From assembly GCA_000432595.1 (NCBI GenBank), contig HF996867.1:72522-136521 (forward strand): DNA of 64,000 bases, written 5' to 3'. Position 1 is the stretch's first letter. Each line of letters begins with the position of its first letter. This DNA is from Clostridium sp. CAG:710. Lineage in GTDB: Bacteria; Bacillota_I; Bacilli_A; RF39; UBA660. This document shows positions 513-55,618 of this stretch, one piece after another. The notes under the pieces were generated by a model. The model was not told where the DNA came from. It did no database searches and saw only the letters and a list, made by a program, of their open reading frames with translations. The position numbers and the translations under genes were made by a program.

Positions 513-530
513 AAAGAGAGTGAATTATAT

Positions 531-962
531 ATGGGAATAGTAATTGTTGGTGGAGTAATTGAAAAAGATGGTAAATTTCTTTTAGTTCAAGAGGCACAAG
601 AAAAATGCAGAGGTAAATGGAATATACCGGCAGGGCGTTTAGATCCAAATGAAACAATTTTTGATGGAGCTAAAAGAGAAATTAAAGAAGAAACAGGATG
701 CAATGTTGAATTAACAGGTGTCCTACAAATAGGTAATCGAGTGTTAGAAGATGATGTATTTGTAAGTGTGATATTTTCAACTAAATTATTAGACGAAAAT
801 ATTACATACAACCCTAATGAAATACTAGATGTTAAATGGTTCACTTATGAAGAATTGCTTAATATGAAGGATGAATTAAGGTCATATAATTGGATTATTA
901 ACAGCATAACTGCTTTGATTGAAAACAAAGTCGCAGATATTGATTTGGTAAAAATGATGTAA
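531..962 (+). CDS. NUDIX hydrolase
   Basis: Nudix box GRLDPNETIFDGAKREIKEETG (GX5EX7REUXEEXGU pattern); RBS GAGAG upstream. Confidence 0.8.
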   Translation: MGIVIVGGVIEKDGKFLLVQEAQEKCRGKWNIPAGRLDPNETIFDGAKREIKEETGCNVELTGVLQIGNRVLEDDVFVSVIFSTKLLDENITYNPNEILDVKWFTYEELLNMKDELRSYNWIINSITALIENKVADIDLVKMM

Positions 963-981
963 TCAATGGAGTATATAATAA

Positions 982-1878: not shown

Positions 1879-1895
1879 TAATTTGAAGTTAAGGG

Positions 1896-2029
1896 TATGG
1901 GAATTCCCATAATAGAATTTATGCGGGAGTATAAATTCAGTGCTGGCTAGACACGACTTTTACTCCCACATTGGAAAACATAGAAAAAGAGGATTAAATT
2001 ATTTTGATAATTTTTTCCTCTTTTTTTTT
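1896..2029 (+). repeat. 134-bp repeat, copy 1 (copy 2 at 62149-62281)
   Basis: Roughly 80 percent identical by eye to 62149-62281. Shared blocks: GGGAATTCCC palindrome, AAATTCAGTGCTGGCTAGACA, and the identical 3' hairpin AAGAGGATTAAATTATTTTGATAATTTTTTCCTCTT flanked by A- and T-runs. Confidence 0.75.
1987..2029. terminator. Bidirectional rho-independent terminator inside repeat copy 1
   Basis: AAGAGGA (1987-1993) pairs with TCCTCTT (2016-2022), with inner pairing AAATTAT/ATAATTT. An A-run precedes it and a T-run follows. Confidence 0.6.
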
Positions 2030-2037
2030 GAGATTAT

Positions 2038-2394
2038 TTATACAAAAACATATTCATTTAAGACAATTTCCTCAGCCATATTTTTGTAATTATTCATTAA
2101 CTTTGTCCACTCAATTGGATTTAATTCTTTACTTTTTTCAGACAGTCTTTCATCGCTTTTGATATAATCATCCATTAGTATTTTGTATAAACTTTCACAA
2201 GAATCACTGACTAAAAGAAGATGATGAGTAAGTTTATTTGTTATCAATAGTGTTTCATAAAGTGCTTGTTTGTTTTGTGCAATAAAGTGTAATCTTAGTA
2301 TTCCGTATTTGCCAATTCTTCCACATTCTTCCTCTTTTTCTAAATATAAATTTGGTATTAAATAATCTTCTTGTCTTGTATATTTTATTTCCAT
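2038..2394 (-). CDS. tnpV: TnpV-family transposon protein
   Basis: Collinear with the 15151-15504 paralogue (DYLIPNLYL...; LSEKSKELNPIEWTKLMNNYKNMAEEIVLNEYV). This pattern matches the TnpV proteins of Tn4451-type elements. Confidence 0.8.
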   Translation of the reverse strand: MEIKYTRQEDYLIPNLYLEKEEECGRIGKYGILRLHFIAQNKQALYETLLITNKLTHHLLLVSDSCESLYKILMDDYIKSDERLSEKSKELNPIEWTKLMNNYKNMAEEIVLNEYVFV

Positions 2395-2418
2395 AGTTTT
2401 ATCAATCCTTTCTTAATT

Positions 2419-4190
2419 TTAAACATTTATTAGTTCTGTTTTTGGTATAAGAATTAAAGTATCAACTATATTGTTGCCTTCAATATAAGGACAATTTATT
2501 ATTCCATCTACATAGAAATGTTCTTTCATTAAATTAATATAGTTGTTTAATTCTTCTCCAGAATATAGATTATTTTCCATTTTTTCTAATGACATAATGG
2601 TATAATCTTTTTGTAATTCTAATAATTTTTCTTTATTAATTTGTTCTTTATAAGTTATACCAATATTATTATTAGTTAGTAGTTCATTTAAATAATCAAT
2701 ATAATCTTGTGTACTTTTTGAGATAAATCCTTCAGTAAATTTGATATTTTTAATCTCAATATTGTAGTTATCATCTCTAATTATTTCAATAGAAGATATT
2801 AATCTATTAATTAATTCTTTTTATGCTTTTCTATTTAAACTATCAAATAAATAAGCAAAACTTAAATTATTTTTAAATATAAAATCTCCATTATCTTCTT
2901 CATAATCTAATTTTTTTAGAAGTTCTACTGTGTATTCTTTAAAGTCATTATCTGGATCAAGAGTAGTTTTCTTTTTAGTTAGTTTATCAATCTCTTTTTT
3001 AATAACATCATTTTTATGATTAATAGTTTCTACATCAAGAGTAGAACTTAAATATAAGTCAACTAATCTTTTTTCTTGAACTTTTAATTTTTCAATGGCT
3101 TTGTCTATTTCCTTTACTTCTTTACTTTTGGTAGAACTACAAGTAATTATTTCGTTAGAATTATCATACATAAATCTAGTTAATTCATTTAAAATTCTTT
3201 TTAATTTATCTTCAATTTTATCTGAATTATAATGATAACCATAACCTTTGCAATTAGAGTTTTTACATCTTAAATGATAATAAATTTTAGTTTCATTCTT
3301 ATACTTTTTAAATGATTCACTAGCAGCAAGTATTTCATTACATATTGGACATTTTACTAATCCTGCAAATAAATGAATATGCTCTCCATAGTTTGGATGT
3401 TTATTTTTTTCTAAATTTGCTCTTGTGTGTTCCAAGTAGTTATATCAATAATTGGCTCACAATAGTCTTCAACTCTTAAAACATCCTGTGGTTTTCTTTT
3501 ATACTTTCCATACTCAAATACACCAATATAAATAGAATTAGTAAGTATCTTATAAACTCTATCTGCTTTCCATTTGCCTAGTTTTAAATAAGCGTTATTA
3601 TCTTTCATAATAGTTGCAATATTTCTAGTAGAATGTCCTTTTTTACATAGTTCAAATATCTCTTTAACAACTTGTGATTCAATAGGTTCTACTTCTAAAT
3701 GACCAGTTTCTTTGTTTCTAATATAGCCATAAGGTGCTTTACTTGGGTGTATTTTTTCAAGTGCCATTTCTTCCATTGCTCATTTAGTTCTTGCCCCAAT
3801 TTCTTTCCCTTCACGTTGACCAAATACTAAATTCATACCAAATATCATTTCACCATTAGCAGTAGATACATCATAAGGTTCAAGTATTAATTCAATCTTA
3901 ACATCGTGTTCTTCACAGTAATTAAGTAGCCAGAATCCATCATAATTATTTCTAGTTAATCTATCTACTTTAATAGCAATCAACTTATCAATTTTCTTTG
4001 ATTTGATATCTTTTAATAATCTTTGCATTTCAGGTCTCATTAAATCTTTACCAGAATGTCCTGCATCATTATAGACATCCATAATATCATAATTATTCTT
4101 TTCACAATATTCTTTTATCATTCGAAGTTGTGAATCAATAGAATAGCCATTATCTCTTTGATCATCAGTAGATACTCCTATGGAACGCAT
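2419..4190 (-). pseudogene. Large serine recombinase (TnpX-like), disrupted by frameshifts
   Basis: Three listed ORFs (3780-4190, 3411-3776, 2821-3435) plus an unlisted C-terminal frame (2419-2820) together give resolvase domain (GVSTDDQ, VDRLTR), recombinase domain and a Cys-rich zinc ribbon (CPICNE...RCKNSNC). They lie in different frames. Confidence 0.8.
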
Positions 4191-4423
4191 ATACCGTATT
4201 ATTTTAAAACATTAGATTTAATAAATTTTGATTATAAAATAAATACCAGTATCACTATTGTTACTGGCATGAAACAAGAGAAAGTTAGTATTGATAAATT
4301 AAATATTACAATCTCTTTTGGTATATAAAATAGCATGTTTCAAATTAAAATAATGATTGTTAAATAAAAAGGAAAAAGAATATTGACTATATGAATTATC
4401 AATATCCTTTTTTATAATGTGAA

Positions 4424-5218
4424 TTATAGTTTTTTTGATTTGTTAATTGACTCAAATATCATATTAATATTGTCATTAGCATTTTGGTTATTACTGGTAG
4501 TTATGTCTCTTTTGATTTGAGCTAAGATATCTAAATCCAATTTTTCTTTTCCTACTAACATTTCTGAAAGTCTACTAGAAATTGTTTCAATAGGATATAT
4601 TGAACTTACTGCACTTATTAATGGTTGTAAATCTAATAAACATCTACTATAATCTCCTAATTGTTTATCAATTATCTTTTTCTTTCTTTCTTCGTCAATT
4701 AATTTTTGTGTTGTATTTTGTATGGCCTGAATATGTCCAATCGTTTGTAATAGCTTAAAACCTATGATATCTATTGGATTAGGTACTATTATGCTTTTAC
4801 CATTAGAAGTTAATTTAACAAGATTAATTCCTAATTCACAATCTCTCGGATCACTTATATGTAGAACAGATTTCCCTTTTGATGAGATTTTATCAAAATC
4901 TGGGATAATATCATATAAATTATAAATAAATGCTTTACTTGGTTCACCAGAAACATAAACATAATCAGTGTCATTAATTTGTCTTCTAAATTGAGAAAAA
5001 TTATTTTTTGCTTCAACTGGAATATCATAAATAGAACCCATTCCAATTATCTTTCCATTATCAACCATTATTTCTTGCATACTGTCTGCACAAATAAATG
5101 GCAGTGTTGCTAAAGAACCAGCCATATAATATAGTACATTTCCATTTTTATTAATAGGTGGTTTTGTTTTATAATATAATTCACATAAATCCCACGCAAT
5201 TTCTTCTATATTTCTCAT
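4424..5218 (-). CDS. Hypothetical protein, last gene of the cargo operon
   Basis: The ATG at 5218 sits 6 nt after GAGAGGA; the upstream TTG of the listed ORF overlaps the pnuC-like stop. No motif recognised. Confidence 0.5.
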   Translation of the reverse strand: MRNIEEIAWDLCELYYKTKPPINKNGNVLYYMAGSLATLPFICADSMQEIMVDNGKIIGMGSIYDIPVEAKNNFSQFRRQINDTDYVYVSGEPSKAFIYNLYDIIPDFDKISSKGKSVLHISDPRDCELGINLVKLTSNGKSIIVPNPIDIIGFKLLQTIGHIQAIQNTTQKLIDEERKKKIIDKQLGDYSRCLLDLQPLISAVSSIYPIETISSRLSEMLVGKEKLDLDILAQIKRDITTSNNQNANDNINMIFESINKSKKL

Positions 5219-5229
5219 ACTCATTCCTC

Positions 5230-5877
5230 TCAATTTTGTCTTTCAAATTTAATCCATTTTATTAGGCCATAAACGTTAATTAATAAGTATCCTATTGATA
5301 CTAACAACATCATTACTGCATTAGGACTTTTATTAAAAACATTAATAATCCAAATTGATAAATCAAAAGTATTATTAAATAACCATATTATCCAACATTC
5401 TTTAAATCTTAAATTCATAAGAATAATTCCGCACAAGTTTATAACATTACTGCTTGAATCTAGAAATGCTAATTGTTGACCTGGTATTTTTGTCAAAAGA
5501 AAACCTAATAGTAAGCTTCCAAGTATACAACTAGTAATTATTATAATTGAGTTTTTTAATGTAAAACCTCTAATACTTACCTCATTGCTACTATTCTTGT
5601 TTTTAATCCAACTAACATATCCTTGTATTTGTGATGGAAAGAATACAATTACTGATAATATAGCAATACCATATAATCCATTTATATAAGAAATGTAAGC
5701 ATTTAACAAGCAAAAAGCGGCTCCAAATATATAGTTATAAGTCTTACCAATACTTGCATAATATGCATTTAATAATCCACAAGTAAGTGTTAGAGTTCCT
5801 AAAAAATAATCTTTAGTAATAATTCCACATAGTATAGAAAATAATACAATTATAATAGTATAAATTTTATTTCTCAT
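5230..5877 (-). CDS. pnuC: PnuC-family (nicotinamide riboside type) membrane transporter
   Basis: 215 aa with about 7 hydrophobic segments and a C-terminal YGLIKWIK, consistent with the PnuC family size and tail. Confidence 0.55.
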   Translation of the reverse strand: MRNKIYTIIIVLFSILCGIITKDYFLGTLTLTCGLLNAYYASIGKTYNYIFGAAFCLLNAYISYINGLYGIAILSVIVFFPSQIQGYVSWIKNKNSSNEVSIRGFTLKNSIIIITSCILGSLLLGFLLTKIPGQQLAFLDSSSNVINLCGIILMNLRFKECWIIWLFNNTFDLSIWIINVFNKSPNAVMMLLVSIGYLLINVYGLIKWIKFERQN

Positions 5878-5887
5878 AAACTTACCT

Positions 5888-6370
5888 CTAAATCACATTT
5901 TCTTTTCCAATTAATCTTTTCAAATTATTGATAAAAATATTATGAAGTTCTAATCCTTTATGACTCATTGTATAATTCTCTAAAACATAAATATTATAAT
6001 TGTTTTCAAATAAATCTAATGCAGTTTTATATACACAGGCGTCAGTATCAAATCCACACAAAAATATTTCATCAATATTATTTTCATCAATAAATTGTTT
6101 TAATTCATCATTTAGTGCTGTATAGGTATTTTTATTAATAATTTTATGATAGTTTGTATTTATTGCAATTTCTTGTCCATTACTTAAAAGACAACCTTTG
6201 TAATCTAATCTCTTATACCATATACTATTCTCGTTATTTATAAATTTTGTAAAAACTATATAATTGTATTCTTTAGAATTAACTAGTTCACTTATTCTAT
6301 CTTTTACATCTTTTGTATTATTGTTTATGAAATCATTTTGAACATCTATGACTAATAAAAGTTTATTCAT
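5888..6370 (-). CDS. Isochorismatase-family cysteine hydrolase (nicotinamidase-like)
   Basis: N-terminal LLLVIDVQNDF and catalytic-Cys context LCGFDTDACV. Confidence 0.75.
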   Translation of the reverse strand: MNKLLLVIDVQNDFINNNTKDVKDRISELVNSKEYNYIVFTKFINNENSIWYKRLDYKGCLLSNGQEIAINTNYHKIINKNTYTALNDELKQFIDENNIDEIFLCGFDTDACVYKTALDLFENNYNIYVLENYTMSHKGLELHNIFINNLKRLIGKENVI

Positions 6371-6381
6371 CTTTTCACCAA

Positions 6382-7386
6382 CTATCTTTTAATTAATATA
6401 TTTGTAATTTTTTCATTACAACTATAAGAATAACCAATTTTACCTTCATTTAACCAATACTGATTTTCTTCGGAGTCTTCTTCTGTTTTAGCAATAAATA
6501 TGGGTTGTAAAATATGCATTGCGTTTGCTAATTTATAAAAAGTCCAAAATGTTTGAAGTTCATATTCAGTTAATTGATTATATTTATTATACTCGGTTAA
6601 CAATGTTGTAATATTATCAATTGTTGTTTGCTCTGAGCTTTCATCTAAACACATATTACAAGATATAACTGCTAAATCTATTATTCTTGGTAAATAGTTA
6701 GAAACAGCAAAATCTATAATCCATATTTTTGAATTGTTATCTTTCATTACATTTGTATTGATTATATCTCCGTGAACAAATGCTTTTGGCAATTTATCAA
6801 AATCAATGTTTTGTAATTCTTTTAATAGATTATCAAATTCTTTCTGATAATATTTTTCAAGATAAATTCTCTTTTGTTTATATTCTTCTTCAAAATTTAT
6901 TATCGCCCATGTATCATATATAAAATTAGGCTTAATATCTAAATTATTTATCATAGCGGTTTGTCTAGCTAATTCTTCGATTTCGTATTTACTGGTTTTT
7001 TGTTTTAATTCAAAAAAGTTTTTACCATTAATATACTCAAATACGCAAATATCATAGTGATTATTTTCATAATCTAAAGATAATGAGATGTCTCCATCAA
7101 CAAGCAAAGGTTTTGGTGCATTAATATTACTATTTGCAACAACTCTAATTCGATTTAGATAATTATTTATATCTTCATTAGTTCTAAATTTATTAAAAAT
7201 TTTAACACAATATTTACCTTTTGAAGTGGTTAAGTAATAATTATAATCCTCATAACCAATAGTAATTAATTCATTTGAAACAAAATTCCCCAAATTATAT
7301 TTATTACATATTTGTTCTGATATATTTTTCAAATCTGTATTTAATCCTATTCTTTTATTAAAATCTTGTAGTTCAAAAGTATTCAT
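6382..7386 (-). CDS. APH/choline-kinase-family phosphotransferase
   Basis: Brenner motif HGDIINTNVM followed by WIIDFAVS (DFG-like), 334 aa. Confidence 0.7.
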   Translation of the reverse strand: MNTFELQDFNKRIGLNTDLKNISEQICNKYNLGNFVSNELITIGYEDYNYYLTTSKGKYCVKIFNKFRTNEDINNYLNRIRVVANSNINAPKPLLVDGDISLSLDYENNHYDICVFEYINGKNFFELKQKTSKYEIEELARQTAMINNLDIKPNFIYDTWAIINFEEEYKQKRIYLEKYYQKEFDNLLKELQNIDFDKLPKAFVHGDIINTNVMKDNNSKIWIIDFAVSNYLPRIIDLAVISCNMCLDESSEQTTIDNITTLLTEYNKYNQLTEYELQTFWTFYKLANAMHILQPIFIAKTEEDSEENQYWLNEGKIGYSYSCNEKITNILIKR

Positions 7387-7597
7387 TTTATTGCCTCTCT
7401 TTCAAAAGTTTTTATCTAATATAATTATATCATTAAATCATAATTTATCATATATTTTGGTCATTAAAAAATTTAATATGTTAATTAATATACTTATACA
7501 CCGTCAAATATCTAACTCAAAACTTATAGTGTTTACAATAGTTCACAAAGATTTTATAAAACATTTTTGGCATATAACATTCAATATTTTATCCTTA

Positions 7598-7703
7598 TTG
7601 ACTTAAAACAAATGAGTGATACAATAAGGTAGAATATGAAATAATTAGGTGTAGACGCATCTATTAAAAGTACTAATTACACGAAAAGATTAGTATCTTT
7701 TTT
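7598..7703 (+). ncRNA. Candidate about 70-nt small RNA: promoter plus terminator with no ORF
   Basis: TTGACT (7598-7603), a 16-nt spacer, then extended -10 TGATACAAT (7617-7625). Terminator AGTACTAAT/ATTAGT(A)TCT (7669-7698) is followed by a T-run to 7703. Only a 3-codon ORF lies inside. Confidence 0.3.
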
Positions 7704-7734
7704 CATATTCAACCAATTCCCCAATATTAGGATT

Positions 7735-8128
7735 TTATGGCTGTAAGTTAGGCAATAAATAATGAAAAAAATAACTTGATTTTAGCCGAAAATAGCATTT
7801 TTTACTATCTAAAAAGTGTGTACGATTGTTATACACCCCTTATTTTATAAGGAACAAAAGTTAACGGTTGTATAACAAATCTTTCAAATGTAAACACTTA
7901 TATTTTTACTAAACCCTTATGAAATAAGGGAAAACTCACTACTGGTGAGTTGTTTGTAAACAGGTTTATCCTGCTTTATATAGAGTATTAAATTATGGTC
8001 AAAGATTTTAAAAAAACACTTGTTTTAATGGTCGAAGTTATGGCCGTAAATTATATTATTTTTAATAATTTTATGGCCAATAGTTTTATTAGATTTATAG
8101 CTATATCACTAGCTATTTTTTTATGGGC
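7735..8128 (+). repeat. Six dispersed copies of TTATGGYC in an ORF-free region
   Basis: Copies at 7735, 7993, 8026 (TAATGGTC), 8038, 8071 and 8121 (TTATGGGC), all in the same orientation. They are GC-containing words in very AT-rich DNA. Confidence 0.5.
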
Positions 8129-8233
8129 TGTATTAAAAAATAAAGTGCGTTATAATTTTTAAAGAAGTTTAAAGAAAGTTGGTGCTTAACTATGAAATGA
8201 ATTGTTTAAGAATTTAAAGGGGGTAATAAAATT

Positions 8234-8419
8234 ATGATGAAAGAAAGTGATAAACATTATGAATATTTAAGAGCTTATATAGCTGAACTTGCTATGTTAG
8301 AATTTATAAAAGATAATAACTTAATTAATGATATTGAATACAAAAAGATTAAAAATAAAATTGAAAATGAATATGCAAAACGTAATAAATTAAACAATTC
8401 TAATTATAGTTTTGCATAA
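8234..8419 (+). CDS. Small hypothetical protein preceding the recombinase
   Basis: RBS AAAGGGGG lies 8 nt upstream. 61 aa and helical (LINDIEYKKIKNKIENEY). Function unknown. Confidence 0.4.
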   Translation: MMKESDKHYEYLRAYIAELAMLEFIKDNNLINDIEYKKIKNKIENEYAKRNKLNNSNYSFA

Positions 8420-8470
8420 TAAAAATATTATTTGAAATATGCTATTATTCAACAATTAGGAAAGGAATAA

Positions 8471-10255
8471 ATGAATAATAACAATGTAGAAATAATAAAA
8501 CCAACTTTAAAAACTATATGTATAAAACAAAATAGAGAAATAAAATTAATACGTGCTTGTGCTTATTGTAGAGTTTCGACTGATAACGAAGATCAAAAAA
8601 CAAGTTATAAATCTCAACGAATACATTATAAAAATATGATTGAAGAAAATCCAAATTATGAGTTCGTAGGAATATATGCAGATGAAGGTATAACTGGTAC
8701 ACAAACTAAAAAAAGAGAACAATTTAATCAAATGATGAATGACACTATTAATGGAAAAATAGATTTAATAATTGCAAAATCTATTTCAAGATTTGCAAGA
8801 AATACTGTTGATACTTTAAATTGTGTAAGACTACTTAGAGAACATAAAGTTGATGTATTTTTCGAAAAAGAAAATATCCATACACTAGGTTTATCTAATG
8901 AATTGTTTTTAACTTTATATAGTGCATTTGCTCAAGCTGAGAGTGAATCTATATCAGAAAATGTTAAAGCCGGTGTTAGAATGAAAATGAAACGTGGTTG
9001 TATGGTTGGTAAATATGCACCATTTGGTTATTTATATGATAAAGAAAAAGATATAATATACCCAGATGAAAGCAAAAAAGATATTATTATCTATATCTTT
9101 GAAGAATACTCTAAAGGAATTGGTTTTAGAACTATTACACTTAATTTAAATGAACTTGGAATACCTAGTCCAACCGGTAGAAAATGGTGCCATGCATCGG
9201 TAAGAAGAATAATAACAAACGAAAAATATGTTGGCGATTTAAGAAGTGGTAAATATTATTCTGATAATGTAATATCTCATAAAAGAAAAGTTAATTATGG
9301 CGAGAAAGAACAATATTTTACCTCTAATCATCACGAGGCTATTGTATCTCGTGAGTTATGGAATAAGTGTCAAGAAATATTAGAAAAAAGAAGTAAGATA
9401 GTTAAACATGATGGCAATAGAGATAAATTCAGTAGAAAGTATCCGTTTAGTAGTAAAATCTATTGTGGTATATGTGGAGAAAGATTTATAAGACGTTCAT
9501 ATAAAATTAGAAGTAATAATAAAGAAATAGCTTATTGGGTTTGCAGAAGTCATAGAAATCAAATTGAGTGTTCTAATTTACTTCATTATAAACAAGAAGA
9601 ATTAGAAGATATATTTATTAAAGTTTATAATGAATTGTTTGAAAATAAAGATAAATATATTAATACTTTTATTAAGAAAATTGATGAAGTAATTAATGAA
9701 AATAACAACTTCAATTCGGATAAAATAAAAGAGGATATTTTAAATCTTCAAAATAGATTATCTAATTTAATTGACTTAAAATTAGATAATAAAATATCAC
9801 AAGAAATACTAAATAATAAAGAAATAGAAATAACTAATAAAATTAAAGAGTTAGAAAATAAACTTGCTGATAATAAAGATTTAGAATTATCTCGTAAAGA
9901 AAAGTTAGAACAAATAAATAATATTACAAAGATTTTAAAACAATATAAAGGATTAACTAAATTTAATGAAGATATATTTAATAATTTAGTAGATAGAATT
10001 ATTATTGGCGAAAAGTTAGATAATGGCAAAGAAGATTTATATAAAATAAAATTCATTCTTAAAACTGGCGAAATGATTAAAGACAATCTACCAAATAGCA
10101 AATTAAAAATTGGTAGTGATATGGGACATTATGGTTTTAGTATAAATAAGCAATCACTTGAAATAAAAGAAGATAATGTGTCTGCCTATGTATTACGTAA
10201 GAACTCTTACATAAACTCCACATCTCATAATTTTCCTCCTTTCCTCAAATTTTGA
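8471..10255 (+). CDS. Large serine recombinase, a different subfamily from the TnpX-like copies
   Basis: YCRVSTDNEDQ catalytic-Ser motif, SRFARNT, recombinase domain, zinc ribbon CGICGERF...WVCRSH, and a coiled-coil tail. Confidence 0.9.
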   Translation: MNNNNVEIIKPTLKTICIKQNREIKLIRACAYCRVSTDNEDQKTSYKSQRIHYKNMIEENPNYEFVGIYADEGITGTQTKKREQFNQMMNDTINGKIDLIIAKSISRFARNTVDTLNCVRLLREHKVDVFFEKENIHTLGLSNELFLTLYSAFAQAESESISENVKAGVRMKMKRGCMVGKYAPFGYLYDKEKDIIYPDESKKDIIIYIFEEYSKGIGFRTITLNLNELGIPSPTGRKWCHASVRRIITNEKYVGDLRSGKYYSDNVISHKRKVNYGEKEQYFTSNHHEAIVSRELWNKCQEILEKRSKIVKHDGNRDKFSRKYPFSSKIYCGICGERFIRRSYKIRSNNKEIAYWVCRSHRNQIECSNLLHYKQEELEDIFIKVYNELFENKDKYINTFIKKIDEVINENNNFNSDKIKEDILNLQNRLSNLIDLKLDNKISQEILNNKEIEITNKIKELENKLADNKDLELSRKEKLEQINNITKILKQYKGLTKFNEDIFNNLVDRIIIGEKLDNGKEDLYKIKFILKTGEMIKDNLPNSKLKIGSDMGHYGFSINKQSLEIKEDNVSAYVLRKNSYINSTSHNFPPFLKF

Positions 10256-10325
10256 GAAATATTAAATACCTCTCATATGTTTCCTCACTTAAATGCAAAA
10301 AGTGTACCCTAAATTTAAAAATTTC

Positions 10326-10592
10326 TTAAAAAGTTTTAATTTCTTTCAAATTATACTTTTCTTTACGCTCTTTAATGTAGAATAGTTTATTACTAATTTC
10401 ATTTACTTTATATTCAAATATAGTAATAGTAATGGGATATATAATTAGATACTCAGTTGGTTCAATAAACTGCAAATTAGTATTTAGAAGAACTTTAACT
10501 TTTCCTTTTTTAGTTTTATAAGTAAATTCTTTAATAAGTTCTAGTAGTTTAGGATTAGGTTTGAGTTCTTGGGTAATTTTAAATTCAAGCAT
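10326..10592 (-). CDS. Conserved small ORF found at element right ends (family of 3 in this window)
   Basis: Strong RBS GGAAGGAGGA precedes MLEFK. NTNLQFIEPTEYLIIY aligns with HTNLAYVEPHKVIINN (17485-17757) and GTNVAYVMPHIIVIKN (59547-59883). Confidence 0.45.
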   Translation of the reverse strand: MLEFKITQELKPNPKLLELIKEFTYKTKKGKVKVLLNTNLQFIEPTEYLIIYPITITIFEYKVNEISNKLFYIKERKEKYNLKEIKTF

Positions 10593-10678
10593 AAAAAATG
10601 TCCTCCTTCCTAGAAAGAGAACATTATCTTTATATTTGGTAGAACAAGCCTTCAAGCCTGACTACGGACAAAATAAAA

Positions 10679-10724
10679 ACTTACGAACTTTAATTAGTCC
10701 GTAAGTTGTCTTCAAATGGAGCGA
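10679..10724. repeat. Element-end module: hairpin plus CAAATGGAGCGA motif
   Basis: ACTTACG (10679-10685) pairs with CGTAAGT (10700-10706) after an A-run, followed by CAAATGGAGCGA (10713-10724). About 85 percent identical by eye to 62301-62350. Confidence 0.65.
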
Positions 10725-10948
10725 TAACTTTACTTATATTCGAAAAATTATACTCTCAAAGTTGTAACGATTAAATCAACTAAATAAATTATATATTATT
10801 TTAATAATAAAATCAATAGAAAAAAGCATAAAATGTATTGACTTTTTATAAAAATGGTATAAAATATAACAAAAGCGAAAAAAATATTTTAAAAAATGGT
10901 ATCATTTAGTTCGTTTTATGATATAATACTATTGAAAGGATGATTATT

Positions 10949-12271
10949 ATGATAAGATATGTTAAACTAGTTAATTATAAGTCACTTGTTAATCTATATG
11001 TTGACTTTATGAAAACTAAAACAAAACCTAAAAATCTAGTACTTATTTATGGTGAGAATGGAATAGGAAAATCAAATTTTGCAAATTCATTTTACACACT
11101 TAATGAGACAATGAGAACTATGTCTTCTATTGAAATGTTTAAAAAGATAATTGAAAAATCAGAAGCTAAACCTAATCAATATAAAAATTTTATTGAAAAA
11201 CATATAAAAGATAGATTTAAAGATGTCAAAATGATTATAAATGATTGTAAAACTATTGATTCAAACGGTAACATGCTAATGGAATATGGTTTTATTTGCA
11301 ATAAAAAAAATGGTATTTATCATATTGAGATGAATAATGAAGAAATTGTATCTGAAAAACTAGAATATGTTATTAATAAAAATCAAACTTATTTTTTTGA
11401 TATAGATAAAAATAATGTTAAAATTAATGCAAGCATTTTTACTGATAAAAATTATTATAATGAATTCCTCGAATTAATTGATAAATATTGGGGCAAGCAT
11501 TCTTTTCTTTCTATTTTGTCTTATGAGATTGAAGATAAGAAAAGAGAATATATGAATAAAAAAATTTCAAAAAGTTTGCATGATGTATTATTATATTTGA
11601 AAATGATGTGCACAAAAATTAAAGGTGGTAATCATAGCGAATTTGGCATCATAGGAACTCAACATATTTTAATGGATGATTTAGAAGAAGGCAAAATATC
11701 TATAAAATATGAAAAAGAACTTGATAAAAATGAGTATTTAATTAATGAAATATTTACTACTTTGTATACTGATATAAAAAATGTTTACTATAAAAGAACT
11801 ATTGAGGACAATTATATAAAATATAAACTTTTTAGTAAGAAAATGATATATGGAAAAATAATGGATGTAGATTTTTCTCTTGAATCTACAGGAACGCAAA
11901 ATATTTTAACATTAGTACCTTATCTAATATCTGCGTGTGAAGGTCAGACAGTAATAATTGATGAGTTGGATACTGGAATACATGATTTACTAGTAAAAAA
12001 CTTGTTAGAATGTATTGCGAGATATGTTAAAGGTCAACTAATTATTACTACACACAATACAATGCTAATAGATTCATCAATACCATCTGAAAATATTTAT
12101 ATTTTTAATGCAAATAGTAAAGCTGAAAAAGAACTAATTGCAATAACTGACTTCGAAGGAAGAATTCATAAAAATAATAGTCCGAGAAAAAGATATCTTA
12201 ATGGAGTATATGGTGGAATACCTATGTTTACTGATATAGATTTTGAGGAATTAATAGAAAATTTAAAATAA
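10949..12271 (+). CDS. ABC/OLD-type AAA ATPase (AbiLi-like)
   Basis: Walker A GENGIGKS near the N-terminus, Walker B VIIDELDTGIHD and ITTHNT near the C-terminus. The ATG at 10949 is better spaced from AAAGGA than the one at 10940. Confidence 0.75.
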   Translation: MIRYVKLVNYKSLVNLYVDFMKTKTKPKNLVLIYGENGIGKSNFANSFYTLNETMRTMSSIEMFKKIIEKSEAKPNQYKNFIEKHIKDRFKDVKMIINDCKTIDSNGNMLMEYGFICNKKNGIYHIEMNNEEIVSEKLEYVINKNQTYFFDIDKNNVKINASIFTDKNYYNEFLELIDKYWGKHSFLSILSYEIEDKKREYMNKKISKSLHDVLLYLKMMCTKIKGGNHSEFGIIGTQHILMDDLEEGKISIKYEKELDKNEYLINEIFTTLYTDIKNVYYKRTIEDNYIKYKLFSKKMIYGKIMDVDFSLESTGTQNILTLVPYLISACEGQTVIIDELDTGIHDLLVKNLLECIARYVKGQLIITTHNTMLIDSSIPSENIYIFNANSKAEKELIAITDFEGRIHKNNSPRKRYLNGVYGGIPMFTDIDFEELIENLK

Positions 12272-12285
12272 AGGATAAATGATTA

Positions 12286-12873
12286 ATGAAGTCGTTAAAT
12301 TATACAAAAGCAGTTGTAATTGTTCATGGCAAGTCTGAAAAACAAATTTGTCAATATATAAAAAATAAACTTAGATTAAAAATGGAAATATATAGTGATA
12401 AAAATGGTGAAAAAGCAATACAAATAACTAGTTTAAAAAATACACTTAATAATAAGATTTTTAAATCATTTAAGAATTTTATTAAAACATATGAAGATAT
12501 TAAATTAACTAATGACGAAAAAAATATAGACGATGAATTTAAAATATTCATTATTATGGATACTGATGATTGCACTGAAAAACAAAAAAAAGATTTTATT
12601 AATAAGGAAATATTTAAGGAACATTGGGCATATAAATATATTGTGCCTATATATAACATTCCAGAACTTGAATCAGTTTTAGAAATGGCAAAAATTCCGT
12701 TTACAAAAACAGGAGATAAAAGAAAAAAAGAATATATTAAATTATTTCCAACTGATCCAAGATATGAGAAAACTGATGAAATTCAGATTAAAGAATTACT
12801 AAATACTTTAAAAAAACAAAATAATACTAATTTAAATGAGTTTTTAGATTTTTGTCTAAAATCATCTAATTAA
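12286..12873 (+). CDS. RloB-like (Toprim-like) protein, partner of the ATPase (AbiLii-like)
   Basis: VVIVHGKSEKQ, IIMDTDD and IYNIPELESVL parallel the RloB pattern (CEGEKTE ... DRD ... NPCFE). It starts 14 nt after the ATPase stop. Confidence 0.6.
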   Translation: MKSLNYTKAVVIVHGKSEKQICQYIKNKLRLKMEIYSDKNGEKAIQITSLKNTLNNKIFKSFKNFIKTYEDIKLTNDEKNIDDEFKIFIIMDTDDCTEKQKKDFINKEIFKEHWAYKYIVPIYNIPELESVLEMAKIPFTKTGDKRKKEYIKLFPTDPRYEKTDEIQIKELLNTLKKQNNTNLNEFLDFCLKSSN

Positions 12874-13174
12874 TATACTTACAATACTTGATACTTTTAC
12901 CTCAATAATGACATTAATATTGCCTATTTGGATTTCAATAATTTTATTGTTAATAGTTGTTATAATTAAGTTAATGAATCAAATGGAGGAAAATATTATA
13001 AAAAATAATAGTGGTGTAAAAAACTGCGGTGTATGTAGGCAACCAAATTATTTATTATTGATGGTGTATTAAGTTTGTATAGATGCGCAGTTTGAGGTGC
13101 AAATCCTCAGCCTACACCTAATATTTGTTAAATAATAAAATATATGATATAATTTTAGTAGGAGGTAGATATTT

Positions 13175-13753
13175 ATGGATAATAAGTCGTCAGGAAGAGT
13201 AATGTTAGAAAGAGCAATAGAATCTGGAAAAGGAACTTTAAGATTATTTAGTGCATTTATTGAAGAAACTGTTTTAAAAGGGAAATCAATTAGTAAAATA
13301 GCAAATAGTACATATTTAGTTGCATTAAGTGAGTTAGCAAAGTCATATGCAAGTTTTGATTCTACAAGTGCTATAAATCAATTAGATAATTTCTTTGCTT
13401 TAGTTACAACTGTTTCAAGAGTTCAAAGCGGTATGCTTATGGAAGGAATAATTGATAAAGAATATAATTATACATATGGTCAAACTATTATAGAAAATTC
13501 AAAACCAATGAATAATTATCCTGGTGCAGTAGAAGATCATAATCAACAACTTTTAAGATTAAACCAACAACATGAAATAGATTTAGCATCATGTAAAAAG
13601 CAAATATATCCTGAATCATTGTTGAAATCAAAACGTGAGGCACCATTTGTTGCTAAAGATGGAGCAGAATATCCAACCATATTAGATTATGTAGCATATG
13701 TAACTAAATTACAAGAAGAGATGGAAAAGACATCTTCTGGTCCAAAAAAATAG
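13175..13753 (+). CDS. Hypothetical protein
   Basis: RBS GGAGG 8 nt upstream; 192 aa; no motif recognised. Convergent with the relaxase gene. Confidence 0.5.
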   Translation: MDNKSSGRVMLERAIESGKGTLRLFSAFIEETVLKGKSISKIANSTYLVALSELAKSYASFDSTSAINQLDNFFALVTTVSRVQSGMLMEGIIDKEYNYTYGQTIIENSKPMNNYPGAVEDHNQQLLRLNQQHEIDLASCKKQIYPESLLKSKREAPFVAKDGAEYPTILDYVAYVTKLQEEMEKTSSGPKK

Positions 13754-13770
13754 AAAAAGACAAAACTAGG

Positions 13771-15075
13771 TCATAAACTCCTAGAATTGTCTTTTTCTTT
13801 TTGTATGTCTTTATCAAAATTATTAATATTATCTTGCATAGATTTTGCTCTTTCTTTTATATCTTTACAATATTTGTCATACTTACGAAGTTTTTTAATT
13901 TTAGGTTGAATATCATTTATTTCAGCAAGTATTTTAGATTTATCTTCTTCATTTTTAACTTTATGATATTTTTTCCAAAGGCTTTCTCTTTTATCCATAA
14001 AAATTTTATATTCCTCATAATTGATTTTAGAAAAATGATTTAAGTCTTCTTCTGTTTCAATGTTATTCTTTTTCATAAATACTATTTGATTTGAATATTC
14101 ATCTAATTTTGTAATTTCTTTTCTAATTGAGTATGGTAGATATTGTTTAGGATGCTTCTTTGGAAATACGCCTAATAAATAACAATAGTATAAGTATAAG
14201 CCATAAATACCTTTATGCGATTTATTAGTCTTTAAGTATTCTTCAAAAATAGACTTTTGAGGTATAGGCTTAAATACAATTTGTCTTGATAAATATAATC
14301 TTTTGCTAATACCATCTTTAGAATATTCTTTACCAAATGCTTTTTCTATTCTAACCTTATCCTCATTATCTTTATAAATAGTTATAGTGTCATTTTTAGA
14401 GTATATTTTGTATCCTAACTCTCTCATTCTTTGAACAACTTGTTTAAGTGTTACTGAATAGCTAATAACATTATCTAAATCTTCTTTTAATATTCTATAA
14501 TAGTCATCACTTAATACTTTATTCTTGTAGGTGTTTTTGTAGCCTATATCTTCATCTAAAGTTGATAATCCATATTCAACACATAATGAGTCTGATATAT
14601 GTCTTAACTTAGCTAGATTAGTCCTATTGTTGTTATACTTTTTACCAGTTTTAAATGAAACAGAATTCACTATGAAATGATTATGAATATGATTAGTGTT
14701 TTGATGTGTTGCTACAACCACTTCAAAGTCCTTAAACATTTCTTCTGCAAACTTTACTCCAATCTCATGAGCAATATCAGAAGTAACTTCTCCTTCTTTA
14801 AAAGATTGATAACTATGAAACGCTAATATCCCATTTGTTTTTCCATATTCTTCTTTTGTAAAAAGCATATCTTCATAAGGATTTCTTTCAGAGCAGTTTA
14901 TTGAACTAACATAACATACTTTTTCGTTTTTATAATTGTTTTCTGTATTCTCAATTTCAAGATAACTATATAAGTTTTTTCCATAATCTTTATTGATGGT
15001 TTTTTCGGGATTAATGATATAATTTATTGACTGTTTTAAATTATTTTTAATACTCCAAATAGAAGTAGTCGCCAT
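13771..15075 (-). CDS. mob: MobA/VirD2-type relaxase (mobilisation nuclease)
   Basis: N-terminal MATTSIWSIKNNLKQSINYI and the histidine triad HQNTNHIHNHFIVN. Confidence 0.85.
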   Translation of the reverse strand: MATTSIWSIKNNLKQSINYIINPEKTINKDYGKNLYSYLEIENTENNYKNEKVCYVSSINCSERNPYEDMLFTKEEYGKTNGILAFHSYQSFKEGEVTSDIAHEIGVKFAEEMFKDFEVVVATHQNTNHIHNHFIVNSVSFKTGKKYNNNRTNLAKLRHISDSLCVEYGLSTLDEDIGYKNTYKNKVLSDDYYRILKEDLDNVISYSVTLKQVVQRMRELGYKIYSKNDTITIYKDNEDKVRIEKAFGKEYSKDGISKRLYLSRQIVFKPIPQKSIFEEYLKTNKSHKGIYGLYLYYCYLLGVFPKKHPKQYLPYSIRKEITKLDEYSNQIVFMKKNNIETEEDLNHFSKINYEEYKIFMDKRESLWKKYHKVKNEEDKSKILAEINDIQPKIKKLRKYDKYCKDIKERAKSMQDNINNFDKDIQKEKDNSRSL

Positions 15076-15102
15076 AATTAAGGTTTAGCCTTTCTATATA
15101 GT

Positions 15103-15129
15103 GGATTTTTGGGGTGGGAGTAAAAATCC
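15103..15129. promoter_or_regulatory. Candidate oriT hairpin upstream of the relaxase gene
   Basis: GGATTTTT (15103-15110) pairs with AAAAATCC (15122-15129) around the G-rich loop GGGGTGGGAGT. The core GTGGGAGTAAAA recurs in the 134-bp repeat. Confidence 0.3.
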
Positions 15130-15150
15130 GTTGCTTGCTTATAGAAAGAA

Positions 15151-15504
15151 TCAATCATAGATTAACTCTTTTAAAATAATTTCTTCAGTCATATTTCTAT
15201 AATTATTCATCAATTTAACCCATTCAATTTGATTATTATCTTTACTTTTTTCAGATAGTTTGTCGTCATTTTCAATATAGTTACTCATTAAAATATTGTA
15301 TCTTTTAGAGCATTCAATACTGACCGAAAGAAGATGATTTGTTAATTCATTTTTCATCAGTAATGACACATATAATCCTTTTTTATGATTTTTAATATAA
15401 TCTAATCTTAAATATCCATACTTATTAAGTTGTTTATAATTCTGTTTTTTAATTGTTAAATTTGGCAATAAATAGTCACCAATTTTTGTATATTCAATAT
15501 TCAT
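15151..15504 (-). CDS. tnpV: TnpV-family transposon protein
   Basis: GDYLLPNL..., LSEKSKDNNQIEWVKLMNNYRNMTEEIILKELIY. Lies directly downstream of the recombinase gene, as in Tn4451. Confidence 0.85.
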   Translation of the reverse strand: MNIEYTKIGDYLLPNLTIKKQNYKQLNKYGYLRLDYIKNHKKGLYVSLLMKNELTNHLLSVSIECSKRYNILMSNYIENDDKLSEKSKDNNQIEWVKLMNNYRNMTEEIILKELIYD

Positions 15505-15522
15505 AATTTTATTATTTCCTTT

Positions 15523-17364
<1,842 letters not shown>

Positions 17365-17377
17365 TTAGGGTAGTGAA

Positions 17378-17413
17378 AGGCACCAAAAAAGGTGTCACAT
17401 AACAAGGACACCT
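17378..17413. promoter_or_regulatory. Operator-like G(G/A)CACC half-sites upstream of tnpX
   Basis: AGGCACC (17378-17384), AGGTGTC (17390-17396) and GACACCT (17407-17413). The last two form a 7-bp inverted repeat just 5' of the tnpX RBS. Confidence 0.35.
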
Positions 17414-17484
17414 CTAGATTTTATTGATTATTTGTACGACAAAAACAACCAATATTATGGGAGTATCTAAACTCTCAAATCAAT

Positions 17485-17757
17485 TTAATGCCTTGCTATG
17501 TATTCTGATAATTCAGATAATGGAACTTTATTTTGTAAGTTTCCTAAATAAAAATATTTTTGTTCATTAAAGAACAAGTATAACTGGTTATTTATTATAA
17601 CCTTATGAGGTTCAACATACGCTAGATTAGTATGTTCAACAATTCGTAAGCAACCTTCGTAGATTTTATATTTCTGCTTACTAAATTTGCAAGACCAATC
17701 GATTTTGGTTTTGAGTTCATCACTCATATTGATTTTCTTCTTAATTATTTTAATCAT
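17485..17757 (-). CDS. Conserved small ORF at the element right end
   Basis: 90 aa with RBS AAAGGTG. Homologous to 10326-10592 and to the frameshifted 59547-59883. Confidence 0.45.
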   Translation of the reverse strand: MIKIIKKKINMSDELKTKIDWSCKFSKQKYKIYEGCLRIVEHTNLAYVEPHKVIINNQLYLFFNEQKYFYLGNLQNKVPLSELSEYIARH

Positions 17758-17789
17758 ATCACATCACACCTTTCTTTGCAATAACGCAC

Positions 17790-17814
17790 AAAAAAATCAA
17801 CTATTTCTAGTTGA
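17790..17814 (-). terminator. Rho-independent terminator downstream of tRNA-Gly
   Basis: TCAACTA-TTTC-TAGTTGA (17797-17814) with a T-run on the minus strand (17790-17796). A near copy lies at 59882-59906. Confidence 0.6.
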
Positions 17815-17855
17815 CTTAATCATTAACGTCACATTGGTGCGACGATTTTATCTTA

Positions 17856-17929
17856 TGGAGCGGACGATGGGAATCGGACCCACGTAGTTAGCTTGGAAGG
17901 CTAAGGTTCTACCATTAAACTACGTCCGC
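17856..17929 (-). tRNA. tRNA-Gly (anticodon UCC) with an unusual T-loop
   Basis: Hand-folded cloverleaf: acceptor GCGGACG/CGTCCGC, D-loop with GG, anticodon loop CTTCCAA, T-arm GTGGG-TCCGATT-CCCAT, encoded CCA. Position 55 is C rather than T. Confidence 0.85.
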
Positions 17930-17947
17930 ATCAAGTAGACATTTAAA

Positions 17948-17975
17948 ATTATAACATATATAAAATAGATGTCAA
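17948..17975 (-). promoter_or_regulatory. Sigma-A type promoter for tRNA-Gly
   Basis: On the minus strand: TTGACA (17970-17975), a 16-nt spacer, TATAAT (17948-17953), about 19 nt upstream of the tRNA 5' end. Confidence 0.45.
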
Positions 17976-18058
17976 TACTAAATTTTAAAAAATAACAAAA
18001 AAATTTGTTAAAAAGGTATATGTAAAATGTATTATCAAATTCTACCTACAAAGATAGT

Positions 18059-18580
18059 TTATCCCAAAATTCCATCAAATATACCGATTGATAAAATAGA
18101 CATAATAATACCAGCCATTAATACACCAATACAAGCAGCCAAGAAAGATTTCTTTTTATCCATTTCAAGCATTGCAGCAATAAGACATCCTGTCCAAGCA
18201 CCAGTTCCAGGTAATGGTATACCAACAAAAAGAACTAATCCCCAAAAACCATACTTTTCAATTTGTCCCTTTTTCTGTTCTACCTTTTTATCAAGCCAAA
18301 GTACAAATTTTTTGAAACGACCTACATTACTTGTACGCATCTTATCTATAATAGATTTAATTAACCAAAGTATAAAAGGAACAGGTAATATATTTCCGAT
18401 ATAACAAATTATAAAAGACACGACCGGATTCAAGCCAAGTGCTCTAGCTGCCAGTATTCCTCCACGAAGTTCCAAAATAGGTGCCATAGAAAGTAAAAAT
18501 GCAATCAACTCTCTTCCAAAAGGAATTGCCTTAATACCTCCCAAAACTCCTAATAAAAACGTTACTAATTTTTCTGTCAT
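18059..18580 (-). CDS. Small integral membrane protein (small multidrug-export-like family)
   Basis: 173 aa with 4-5 hydrophobic segments (PILELRGGI, GIPLPGTGAWTG). The family assignment is from memory. Confidence 0.5.
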   Translation of the reverse strand: MTEKLVTFLLGVLGGIKAIPFGRELIAFLLSMAPILELRGGILAARALGLNPVVSFIICYIGNILPVPFILWLIKSIIDKMRTSNVGRFKKFVLWLDKKVEQKKGQIEKYGFWGLVLFVGIPLPGTGAWTGCLIAAMLEMDKKKSFLAACIGVLMAGIIMSILSIGIFDGILG

Positions 18581-18809
18581 AATTATCCTCCACTAATTCT
18601 ATTCAATTATATTAAATAAATGCACAGTCATGTTGAAAAAAACATAACTGAAATTATCCTAATATTCCTATTTAATATAATATCATACGCAGATTAGTTT
18701 GTACATACCATTAATAATTTCACTCACGCTATATATAAATTCCATTGTTTCATGCCGTTTCATTGTATATAAAAAAAATAAAACAATATAATTTTATAGG
18801 TGATACTAT

Positions 18810-52578: not shown

Positions 52579-52707
52579 CTTTTGATTTTGTTTCATATTT
52601 AATTTTAGCAGGACAGGAGAATAAGCACGTTCAATGCGAAAATCCTTATTTTAAAAGTAAAAAGCATTTTTGCACTTGAGTTAATGAATATAATAATATA
52701 AAAAAAC

Positions 52708-55530: not shown

Positions 55531-55618
55531 AATTGCTAATTATATTGAAAATAAGAATGAAGTTTTAACGTTAAAAAGGTGTATTAATTCAAGCAATCAA
55601 AGTGTATGAGGTAGATAT

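Follow-up and report, generated by a model that had tools for sequence, protein, structure and literature searches.

What does it mean when a short sequence resembling the end of a tRNA gene recurs in the accessory DNA of a gut bacterium? The question is raised by a stretch of 64,000 nucleotides (hereafter, the window) from Clostridium sp. CAG:710 (assembly GCA_000432595.1, contig HF996867.1, positions 72,522 to 136,521), which has a G+C content of about 25% and whose close matches are contigs of uncultured human-gut bacteria. A preliminary description of this DNA, made from the letters alone, pointed to the 12-mer CAAATGGAGCGA at positions 10713 and 62338 and to its variants at 59946, 52744, 12980 and 963, and interpreted them as attachment-type junctions that arose when serine-recombinase elements inserted one after another at the 3' end of tRNA-Gly; a sequence search of the window finds all six strings where they were reported, and the breakpoints between strains agree with the interpretation. 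Our analysis indicates that the strong copies of the motif are very probably recombination joints of integrative elements, moved by large serine recombinases (LSRs) and stacked at the CCA ends of tRNA-Gly genes. The conclusion is carried by the positions of the junctions, by the polymorphisms that break at them, and by the linkage of the recombinase family to tRNA ends.

Motif copies and strain breakpoints

Two of the six copies look like chance matches in AT-rich intergenic DNA, and the 12-mer as such is weakly enriched: allowing up to two mismatches, it has 8 matches where 2.2 are expected, a number that 1 of 100 shuffles attains. The copy at 963 is the ribosome-binding site (GGAG) of the gene that starts at 982, with no break in related loci; the copy at 12980 has the core CCTCCA, is not accompanied by a hairpin or a breakpoint, and lies within the variable cargo of element A (see below). 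Both are chance occurrences, and from the six or more recurring copies of the preliminary description those at 10713, 52744, 59946 and 62338 are retained. For these four, coincidence has a negligible probability and is already refuted. The heptamer CGCTCCA occurs five times in the window against 0.51 expected, a count reached by none of 100 shuffles, and four of the five occurrences, on the minus strand, are the end of tRNA-Gly(tcc) and the three strongest copies. The 14-nt degenerate pattern TCGCTCCAWWTKRA, with at most one mismatch, is found at exactly four sites, all on the minus strand (10711-10724, 52742-52755, 59945-59958 and 62336-62349; 0.25 expected), and all four strong copies coincide with comparative breakpoints.

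Read on the minus strand, each strong copy consists of (N)CGCTCCA, a stable hairpin and a T-run, and mimics the last bases of a tRNA-Gly gene, including the encoded CCA. The preliminary description had noticed both the resemblance to the acceptor end of tRNA-Gly(tcc) at 17856-17929, which indeed ends in CCGCTCCA, and the terminator-like appearance of the minus-strand hairpins, which is borne out by fold z-scores of -2.1 to -5.0 and a U-run after all four copies. All attachment sites discussed here fold as a hairpin followed by a U-run, and we consider these hairpins putative terminators. One could take motif and hairpin for an independent RNA feature (a leader attenuator, for example, or the 3' terminus of a small RNA) whose coincidence with cassette boundaries is accidental; the strong hairpin with its U-run (z down to -5.0) would suit this explanation, and so would the location of the 10713 copy upstream of a minus-strand open reading frame (ORF) with a good ribosome-binding site. 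We regard it as very unlikely. The only Rfam hits in the whole window are two tRNAs, hence the motif with its hairpin is no known RNA family; the 62338 copy has no downstream minus-strand gene; the conserved stretch begins exactly where homology between strains breaks; and the 5' arm of the hairpin is a symmetric half-site of attP. Terminator activity, for its part, fits recombination joints equally well and does not compete with them.

The copy at 10713, our index copy, belongs to an array behind tRNA-Gly(tcc). By Pfam, window positions 1-17855 contain three serine-recombinase units, with the following features:

17856-17929, minus strand: tRNA-Gly(tcc) with encoded CCA (ARAGORN and Rfam), the B arm of attB; its core CTCCA appears as TGGAG at 17856-17860
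17785-17855, minus strand: P' arm of element A, with the motif AATCGTCGCAC, a small hairpin (17827-17844), a putative terminator hairpin (17797-17814) and a T-run
10722-17855, minus strand: element A, 7,139 bp with one repeat included, an integrative mobilizable element that is autonomous
17485-17757: 90-aa ORF of A
15523-17352, minus strand: LSR of A, 609 aa, intact, with the Pfam domains Resolvase (4e-32 to 1e-33), Recombinase and Zn_ribbon_recom
15151-15504: TnpV of A (PF14198)
13771-15075: relaxase of A (PF03432)
10940-13753: cargo of A, including an AbiLi-like ATPase (Pfam, PADLOC)
10713-10724, minus strand: index copy, where the P arm of A meets the P' arm of D; core TGGAG at 10717-10721
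10203-10712, minus strand: tRNA-proximal end of the older element D, with type-1 P' arm TTTGAAGACAACTTACGGAC, hairpin (10679-10706) and small ORF (10326-10655)
4181-10202, plus strand: element E, an unrelated serine-recombinase element with a 594-aa recombinase (8471-10255)
1-4180, minus strand: rest of element D, running off the left end of the window, with a decayed recombinase (2821-4190), TnpV (2038-2394), AbiJ (982-1878), a NUDIX gene and an MBL-fold gene

The two matches to PF14198 in the window score 3e-30 and 1e-27.

In ten loci from public assemblies (designated by L and a number where needed) that have the core gene beside this tRNA, homology to the window ends exactly at 17856, the A of the encoded CCA. 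The DNA after the CCA is an empty site in five of them (CCGCTCCA, then ATTTGAATGTAACAGGC, then a terminator), prophage-like in two, an array of two recombinase elements in one, and an 889-bp one-gene cassette in another; one locus is 100% identical to the window over 8059-18600. The starting base at 17856 is shared by the empty sites, the prophage-like insert and three different recombinase or cassette inserts. Element A is absent from L023, L025, L026 and L030, where window positions 1-10723 are fused to 17855 onward via the 8-bp repeat ATGGAGCG; therefore A is a discrete insertion of 7,139 bp, and the index copy is its far joint. In these loci the real tRNA end is followed by the same sequence that follows the motif in the window, namely TTTGAAGACAACTTACGGAC, the hairpin and the small ORF. 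The region 10203-10712 is 72% similar to the post-tRNA DNA of L004 and homologous to L024, in which D is intact and sits directly at tRNA-Gly(tcc); the far end of D, in L024 as well as in L023, reads GGTTCGTAAGATGTTGCTTAACCGCTCCA and is followed by native flank. The P' arm seen in A also follows tRNA-Gly in loci L043-L060.

Element E, which is lacking in L024 and L004, lies within the recombinase gene of D and does not use the motif. Its junctions (4180/4181 and 10202/10203) fall at the codons of the catalytic YVRVST motif of D, and the 594-aa ORF crosses the right junction by 53 nt. Besides this LSR, E has APH, isochorismatase and NMN-transporter genes, and it has the appearance of an element whose target is the conserved stretch that encodes the active site of other LSRs. 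The 594-aa recombinase gene is preceded by a long gene-poor stretch (7400-8470), and a non-coding segment of 438 bp (7562-7999) is missing from L025, L028 and L030, where the joint shows an overlap of 16 bp. In element A, a non-coding, G+C-richer and possibly structured stretch (13020-13130) between two cargo ORFs near the relaxase gene might be an origin of transfer (oriT) or a small RNA. In D, the MBL-fold gene (54-962), annotated as Anti-Pycsar_Apyc1 in related loci, adjoins the NUDIX gene. Other DNAs at the CCA end of tRNA-Gly(tcc) are the prophage-like DNA of L002/L006 (10725 onward), with the joint CCGCTCCA then TAGAAATT, and mini cassettes with type-3 ends, one of 889 bp with a single 192-aa ORF (L010 10725-11613) and one of about 2 kb with a metallophosphatase gene (L023 5990-8010).

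The other three copies lie at the opposite side of the window, beyond a core-genome segment at 18-47 kb (BipA, PBP, IleRS, ClpB), in an accessory-looking region (48-64 kb) that holds no recombinase. Besides the tRNA, the preliminary description had invoked tRNA-like secondary sites. In loci that extend beyond the window, tRNA-Gly(gcc) and tRNA-Cys are found on the minus strand 513 bp past position 64000, and all three copies (52744, 59946 and 62338) are downstream of this tRNA-Gly(gcc), in the correct orientation; no independent secondary sites are needed. The features of this second array are:

about 64513-64586 in window numbering (outside the window), minus strand: tRNA-Gly(gcc), as in L018, L019 and L022
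62347-64000, continuing for about 0.5 kb to tRNA-Gly(gcc), minus strand: cassette C0, with a DUF8370/8371 gene, PDC-M36A-like (PADLOC)
62338-62349, minus strand: joint at which the P arm of C0 meets the P' arm of C1; core TGGAG at 62342-62346, P' hairpin at 62305-62333
59956-62341, minus strand: cassette C1, without a recombinase, period 2,391 bp, type-1 ends homologous to those of D
61528-62142: HD gene of C1
60104-61531: nucleotidase/nucleoside-hydrolase gene of C1
59946-59959, minus strand: joint at which the P arm of C1 meets the P' arm of C2; core TGGAG at 59951-59955
52753-59950, minus strand: cassette C2, about 7.2 kb, without a recombinase, with a 543-aa ORF, HMUDK, SoFic-like and MerR genes (Pfam, PADLOC)
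within 52753-59950: type-2 P' arm of C2 with putative terminator (59889-59906), and a decayed 90-aa ORF
52744-52755, minus strand: outermost junction of the right-hand island; core TGGAG at 52748-52752
52708-52747, minus strand: flank (B' side) common to all tRNA-Gly(gcc) arrangements, with a putative terminator hairpin (52708-52735)

Loci L018, L019 and L022 are 100% identical to 62261-64000, and a cassette in L023 has an end that matches 62347-62400, the P arm of C0. L012/L019 lack positions 59961-62341 and keep a single TGGAGCGAAT, a 10-mer that the window has at both 59951 and 62342; therefore C1 is a two-gene unit of 2,391 bp between two motif copies. The partitioning of accessory DNA into cassettes by motif sites, as originally proposed, is seen for A and for C1, each of which is present or absent between copies, and in the comparison of related strains, the very check that the preliminary description had suggested, the polymorphism breaks exactly at the motif. 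The sequences to the left of the 10713 and 62338 copies are alike, as had been stated; those to the right, taken to be unconserved, recur in other genomes as the opposite ends of elements.

At the tRNA-proximal end of C2, positions 59688-59957 are 72% similar to the recombinase-proximal end of an element in L016. A scan of metagenomes with the core and left flank of the 52744 copy produced three more contigs, with three different sequences joined exactly at CTCCA, and four different DNAs (P arms), the window included, meet one flank at this point. One of these P arms is that of a tet(M)-like element of L017, and the P arm of the window (52753-52790) recurs in L049 beside a proper CGCTCCA. Two strains have further recombinase elements at the CCA end of tRNA-Gly(gcc), with the joints ACGCTCCA and GGGCTCCA.

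Presence and absence of a segment might also result from RecA-independent deletion between short repeats, the motif serving as a convenient microhomology. The repeats at A and C1 are merely 8-10 bp long, and one deletion of this kind is at hand, at 52186-55486 in L016 and L018, via the 8-bp microhomology AAGTGGTT. As a general explanation, deletion is nonetheless very improbable: at least eight different DNAs begin at the same post-CCA base of two tRNA-Gly genes and four join at 52744, and the start of so many DNAs at one base argues for insertion rather than deletion; in addition, A, D and C1 end in cognate arms of partial symmetry, which other species have conserved as well. The segment missing from L016 and L018 includes the 52744 junction, the NUDIX gene for the most part and the beginning of the C2 gene set; its loss is an ordinary illegitimate deletion. 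We rejected this indel as support for the 52744 copy, since its ends are AAGTGGTT and not the motif.

C1 and D have homologous ends and share an internal module of about 130 nt, and C1 looks like a D-type element minus the small ORF, the recombinase and tnpV; its polymorphism could be a never-inserted state or an excision. The shared module is found downstream of AbiJ in D (1899-2026) and downstream of the HD gene in C1 (62152-62281), at 75-94% identity; it ends in a bidirectional terminator and is probably behind an assembly break in GCA_900520885.1. A look-up of the C1 nucleotidase gene (10 places, 16 contigs) gave the same context throughout, with no sign of C1 at another site, and an exact-protein look-up of the HD gene gave nothing on record. 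The 5' part of the HMUDK (5-hmdU DNA kinase) gene of C2 (55625-55879) is duplicated at 71-88% identity at 47983-48208, upstream of a P-type ATPase gene and outside the island as delimited. The cargo of the two arrays is for the most part related to defence: in it, PADLOC recognizes AbiJ (3e-84; 982-1878), AbiLi (3e-43; 10940-12271), SoFic (3e-37; 57160-58128) and PDC-M36A (3e-18; 62558-63979).

A serine recombinase family at tRNA ends

We scanned for relatives in one genome per species, with an alignment of six recombinases as a query, and obtained 80 loci; matches to the family number at least 543. All 80 come from uncultured gut Bacilli, Erysipelotrichaceae, 'Tenericutes' or Clostridia. Upstream DNA was long enough to be informative in 65 loci, and in 49 of these the CCA end of a same-strand tRNA gene is located 390-1141 bp before the recombinase start. 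More than half of the tRNAs (29 of 49) are tRNA-Gly, with 20 cases of Gly(tcc) and nine of Gly(gcc); the rest are Leu (eight), Thr (four), Gln, Asn and His (two each), and Met and Cys (one each). Among the 16 loci without a tRNA, nine have an element arm and CTCCA or CACCA before the P' arm, as arrays predict, and in six of the nine the arm matches a P-arm type defined here; in four others, a tRNA is present but was missed by ARAGORN. Element DNA in the family always begins right after the CCA. Candidate far ends, seen in about 20 elements, repeat the last 6-9 nt of the tRNA, as GCTCCA, GCACCA, GAGCCA or TCGCCCCA, and near-identical P' arms stand behind tRNA-Gly(tcc), tRNA-Gly(gcc) and tRNA-Cys, all three of which end in CTCCA. 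A recombinase of the same architecture (Resolvase, Recombinase and zinc ribbon) is also found beside the joints in L004, L016, L017 and L024, and the elements of L016 and L004 carry Mob_Pre.

This linkage bears on yet another possible origin of the motif copies, as displaced 3' fragments of tRNA-Gly left by classical islands with tyrosine integrases, which duplicate 15-50 nt. Such islands would account for copies that are downstream of tRNA genes, in the right orientation and followed by terminators, and a prophage-like insert does occupy the same tRNA end in L002/L006. Yet identity to the tRNA extends over only 5-8 nt, no tyrosine recombinase is found among the Pfam-scanned ORFs of either island, and it is serine recombinase genes that adjoin the joints, with the linkage holding across the 80 loci; we find a tyrosine-integrase origin hardly credible.

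Judged by their domains, the recombinases of the family are LSRs. Neither of the window recombinases has a Pfam match to DUF4368 at E<=0.001. The only NCBIfam matches are sub-threshold ones to CcrB, XisF and CcrC, the best of them to CcrB at 157 bits with a cut-off of 900, and family members stay far below every NCBIfam equivalog cut-off. In a tblastn search of the PLSDB plasmids the best identity is 33%, which leaves the family with no near relative on plasmids and with nothing that ties it to a Tn4451 record.

Nearly all family members have a conserved ORF of 88-95 aa, with the motifs ..TNLAYVEPH..YLFFN.., between the P' arm and the recombinase gene; the window examples are at 17485-17757 and 10326-10655. 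The protein of about 90 aa forms 549 database clusters, all annotated as hypothetical, and has no Pfam or NCBIfam match. Its AlphaFold model has a pLDDT of 91.7 and matches no fold in PDB or BFVD at E<=0.001. The protein might be a directionality or targeting factor.

Attachment sites and probable growth of the arrays

The true junctions read TGGAGCGG (the tRNA), TGGAGCGT, TGGAGCCC and TGGAGTGA. Their common core is CTCCA (TGGAG on the plus strand), and the repeats are 5-10 bp long. The motif had been considered tRNA-derived; it is, rather, the element's own attP arm that mimics the tRNA end. The GA after TGGAGC, earlier called invariant and likened to the GA crossover of TnpX, is absent from the tRNA (which has GCGG in place of GCGA) and from several joints, and therefore cannot be the crossover. 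The dyad symmetry of reconstructed attP sites from 18 elements is best when centred on 72-73, with a summed score of 180 against 98-151 for other centres, a moderate signal; for D and C1 the score at this centre is 14-16 of 26 against 2-8. Never palindromic, the central pair reads CT in elements at Gly, CA at Leu and CC at His. This symmetry, which is not proof, suggests CT (plus strand AG) as the crossover dinucleotide. The GA within TGGAGC (TC on the minus strand, the discriminator and C74) may be another candidate; we dropped it, because in the relatives at tRNA-Asn and tRNA-Gln this position would be a palindromic GC, and because 72-73 is the centre of symmetry.

A GTTCGA-like hexamer is found at -23..-18 in the P arms, at +22..+17 in the P' arms and, as the T-loop, at -19..-14 in the tRNA gene; judging by sequence, it is a putative binding motif. 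In P and P' it is 3-5 bp farther out than the T-loop in the tRNA gene. With the LI integrase of Listeria, the zinc-ribbon motif is 5 bp nearer to the centre in attB than in attP (PMC3783163), and the hexamer shift appears similar to what this zinc-ribbon model of LSRs describes. The symmetric half-site of attP in type-1 ends is the hairpin's 5' arm itself; therefore the hairpin would probably have a double role, as a binding site and as a replacement for the displaced terminator of the tRNA.

These features can be combined into a model of array growth. Insertion would take place right where a tRNA gene with an encoded CCA ends, with exchange within CTCCA (position 72, discriminator U73 and CCA). 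The incoming element would bring a new CCA, a P' arm to which the recombinase binds, and a terminator hairpin, so that the tRNA would stay intact and its transcript would still be terminated. At the far side, the P arm ending in ..CGCT would be left as a short fake tRNA end, followed by the DNA formerly behind the tRNA. Newcomers would enter at the tRNA-proximal joint, and older elements would thereby be pushed outward, may shed their recombinase genes, and could persist by accretion as motif-bounded cassettes, akin to cis-mobilizable elements (CIMEs). The order behind tRNA-Gly(tcc) would then be A followed by D, with D split by the unrelated E, and behind tRNA-Gly(gcc), which is past the window end, C0, C1 and C2. 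Units bounded by attachment-type sites and devoid of recombinase and transfer genes are C0, C1, C2 and the mini cassettes of L010 and L023; presumably, recombinase-less cassettes are moved in trans. The predicted circular joints are ...AAGTTATCGCTCCATAAGATAAAATCG... (GTTATCGCTCCATAAGATAAAATCG) for A and TGTTGTTTATTCGCTCCATTTGAAATCAAC for C1.

Several points weigh against joints made by serial LSR insertion. No circular joint or excision product was found, and viral contigs, scanned twice for the attP sequences predicted for A and for type-1 elements, gave no hit. The right-hand island is without an intact recombinase gene. That one strain lacks C1 might in principle be due to a deletion between the repeats of 10 bp, and a deletion by 8-bp microhomology (52186-55486) does occur near C1. 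Canonical LSRs, for which attL is normally inert, do not enter at a joint of tRNA plus P' arm. Lastly, attP symmetry is moderate, and the hexamer shift is 3-5 bp and not exactly 5 bp.

A broader proposal, which we put forward tentatively and hold to be somewhat doubtful, is that these recombinases form a widespread, apparently undescribed LSR clade of uncultured gut Bacilli and Clostridia, with the 90-aa protein, of no known fold, as a constant partner. Its attB would be the T-loop hexamer together with the encoded CCA, with exchange at 72/73. These are universal tRNA features, therefore a lineage could switch between target tRNAs (Gly, Cys, Thr, Leu, Met, Asn, Gln and His) largely by changing the two central bases; it would repair the tRNA with its own CCA and terminator, and build integron-like arrays of defence cassettes that may be excised in trans.

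Related systems and biological meaning

Accretion of integrative elements and CIMEs without recombinases are established concepts (PMC5704250); what we see here is accretion by LSRs that target tRNAs. The nearest precedent is the Dehalococcoides ssrA islands, which are moved by the serine recombinases DsiB and DsiA, stand in tandem behind the gene for transfer-messenger RNA (tmRNA), and in many cases have no integration module, which was read as CIME formation by accretion (PMC3146451). Both systems are tandem arrays behind the gene of a small stable RNA, with each unit bounded by a short repeat of its 3' end. In Dehalococcoides, however, the target is the T-loop region of tmRNA, the repeat is 20 bp, and the module consists of a CcrB-like recombinase, a small PinR-like one and four other genes, whereas here the target is tRNA position 72/73 to CCA, the repeat is 5-10 bp, and a single LSR comes with the conserved 90-aa protein and, in many cases, with TnpV as well as a relaxase, in gut Bacilli and Clostridia. 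ICESt1/ICESt3 and the streptococcal integrative mobilizable elements likewise include decayed residents that keep attL and attR and form tandem arrays at one target gene end; those systems, unlike ours, use tyrosine integrases and longer identical cores, and the mobilizable elements with serine integrases in the same review integrate inside protein-coding genes and disrupt them (PMC5704250), not at tRNA ends.

The likeness to TnpX noted in the preliminary description holds for gene order only, given the lack of DUF4368 and an identity below 34% to any plasmid-borne recombinase. As in Tn4451/Tn4453, the LSR gene is at one end and is followed by tnpV and a mobilization relaxase, end repeats are very short, and the target resembles the joint of the circular form. 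TnpX, on the other hand, has low target specificity and a GA crossover, whereas the elements described here insert specifically at tRNA ends and have joints without a conserved GA; low specificity would not fit 49 of 65 loci at a tRNA CCA end and most of the others in arrays. The relaxase of A is PF03432 and not Mob_Pre as in Tn4451/Tn4453, and DUF4368 is typical of the multi-targeting TnpX/TndX clade (PMC10083194). We therefore do not file the family recombinases with the Tn4451 members, despite their tnpV and mob neighbours.

SCCmec cassettes, moved by the serine recombinases CcrAB, insert at the 3' end of rlmH (orfX) without inactivating the gene, and form composite tandem arrays. The best NCBIfam match here is CcrB, albeit far below its cut-off (157 against 900 bits); SCCmec, in contrast, has a protein-coding target, two recombinases or CcrC and no tRNA, and the arrays described here have a tRNA target and one LSR. 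Islander-type islands with tyrosine integrases are likewise situated behind a tRNA gene that is restored by the element, with a fragment-like repeat at the far end, but belong to another recombinase family and have repeats of at least about 15 nt, as opposed to 5-10 nt. Integron attC cassettes (GTTRRRY core, extrahelical bases, IntI) are different too: the core here is CTCCA, the hairpins are simple putative terminators, and Pfam detects no tyrosine recombinase such as IntI among the island ORFs.

In island finders and reviews, tRNA genes are the territory of tyrosine integrases, and serine integrases disrupt protein-coding genes (PMC4383910, PMC5704250, PMC5357655); an atlas of LSRs took only protein-coding targets into account (PMC10083194). 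We found no tRNA-specific serine integrase in the searchable literature, although large island databases may hold such cases. A large LSR clade that does the tRNA-targeting job, with a core of five bases that includes the encoded CCA, counters the tyrosine-only rule. In practical terms, the succession of N-CGCTCCA, P' arm and terminator provides a simple annotation rule by which the limits of such islands can be set in metagenome-assembled genomes. LSRs work without host factors, and enzymes for which the nearly universal tRNA end is the natural attB could be portable integration tools. For the poorly known human-gut group in which they are found, the arrays explain how accessory genes, including homologues of the defence proteins AbiJ, AbiLi, SoFic and PDC-M36A, pile up as exchangeable cassettes behind two tRNA-Gly genes.

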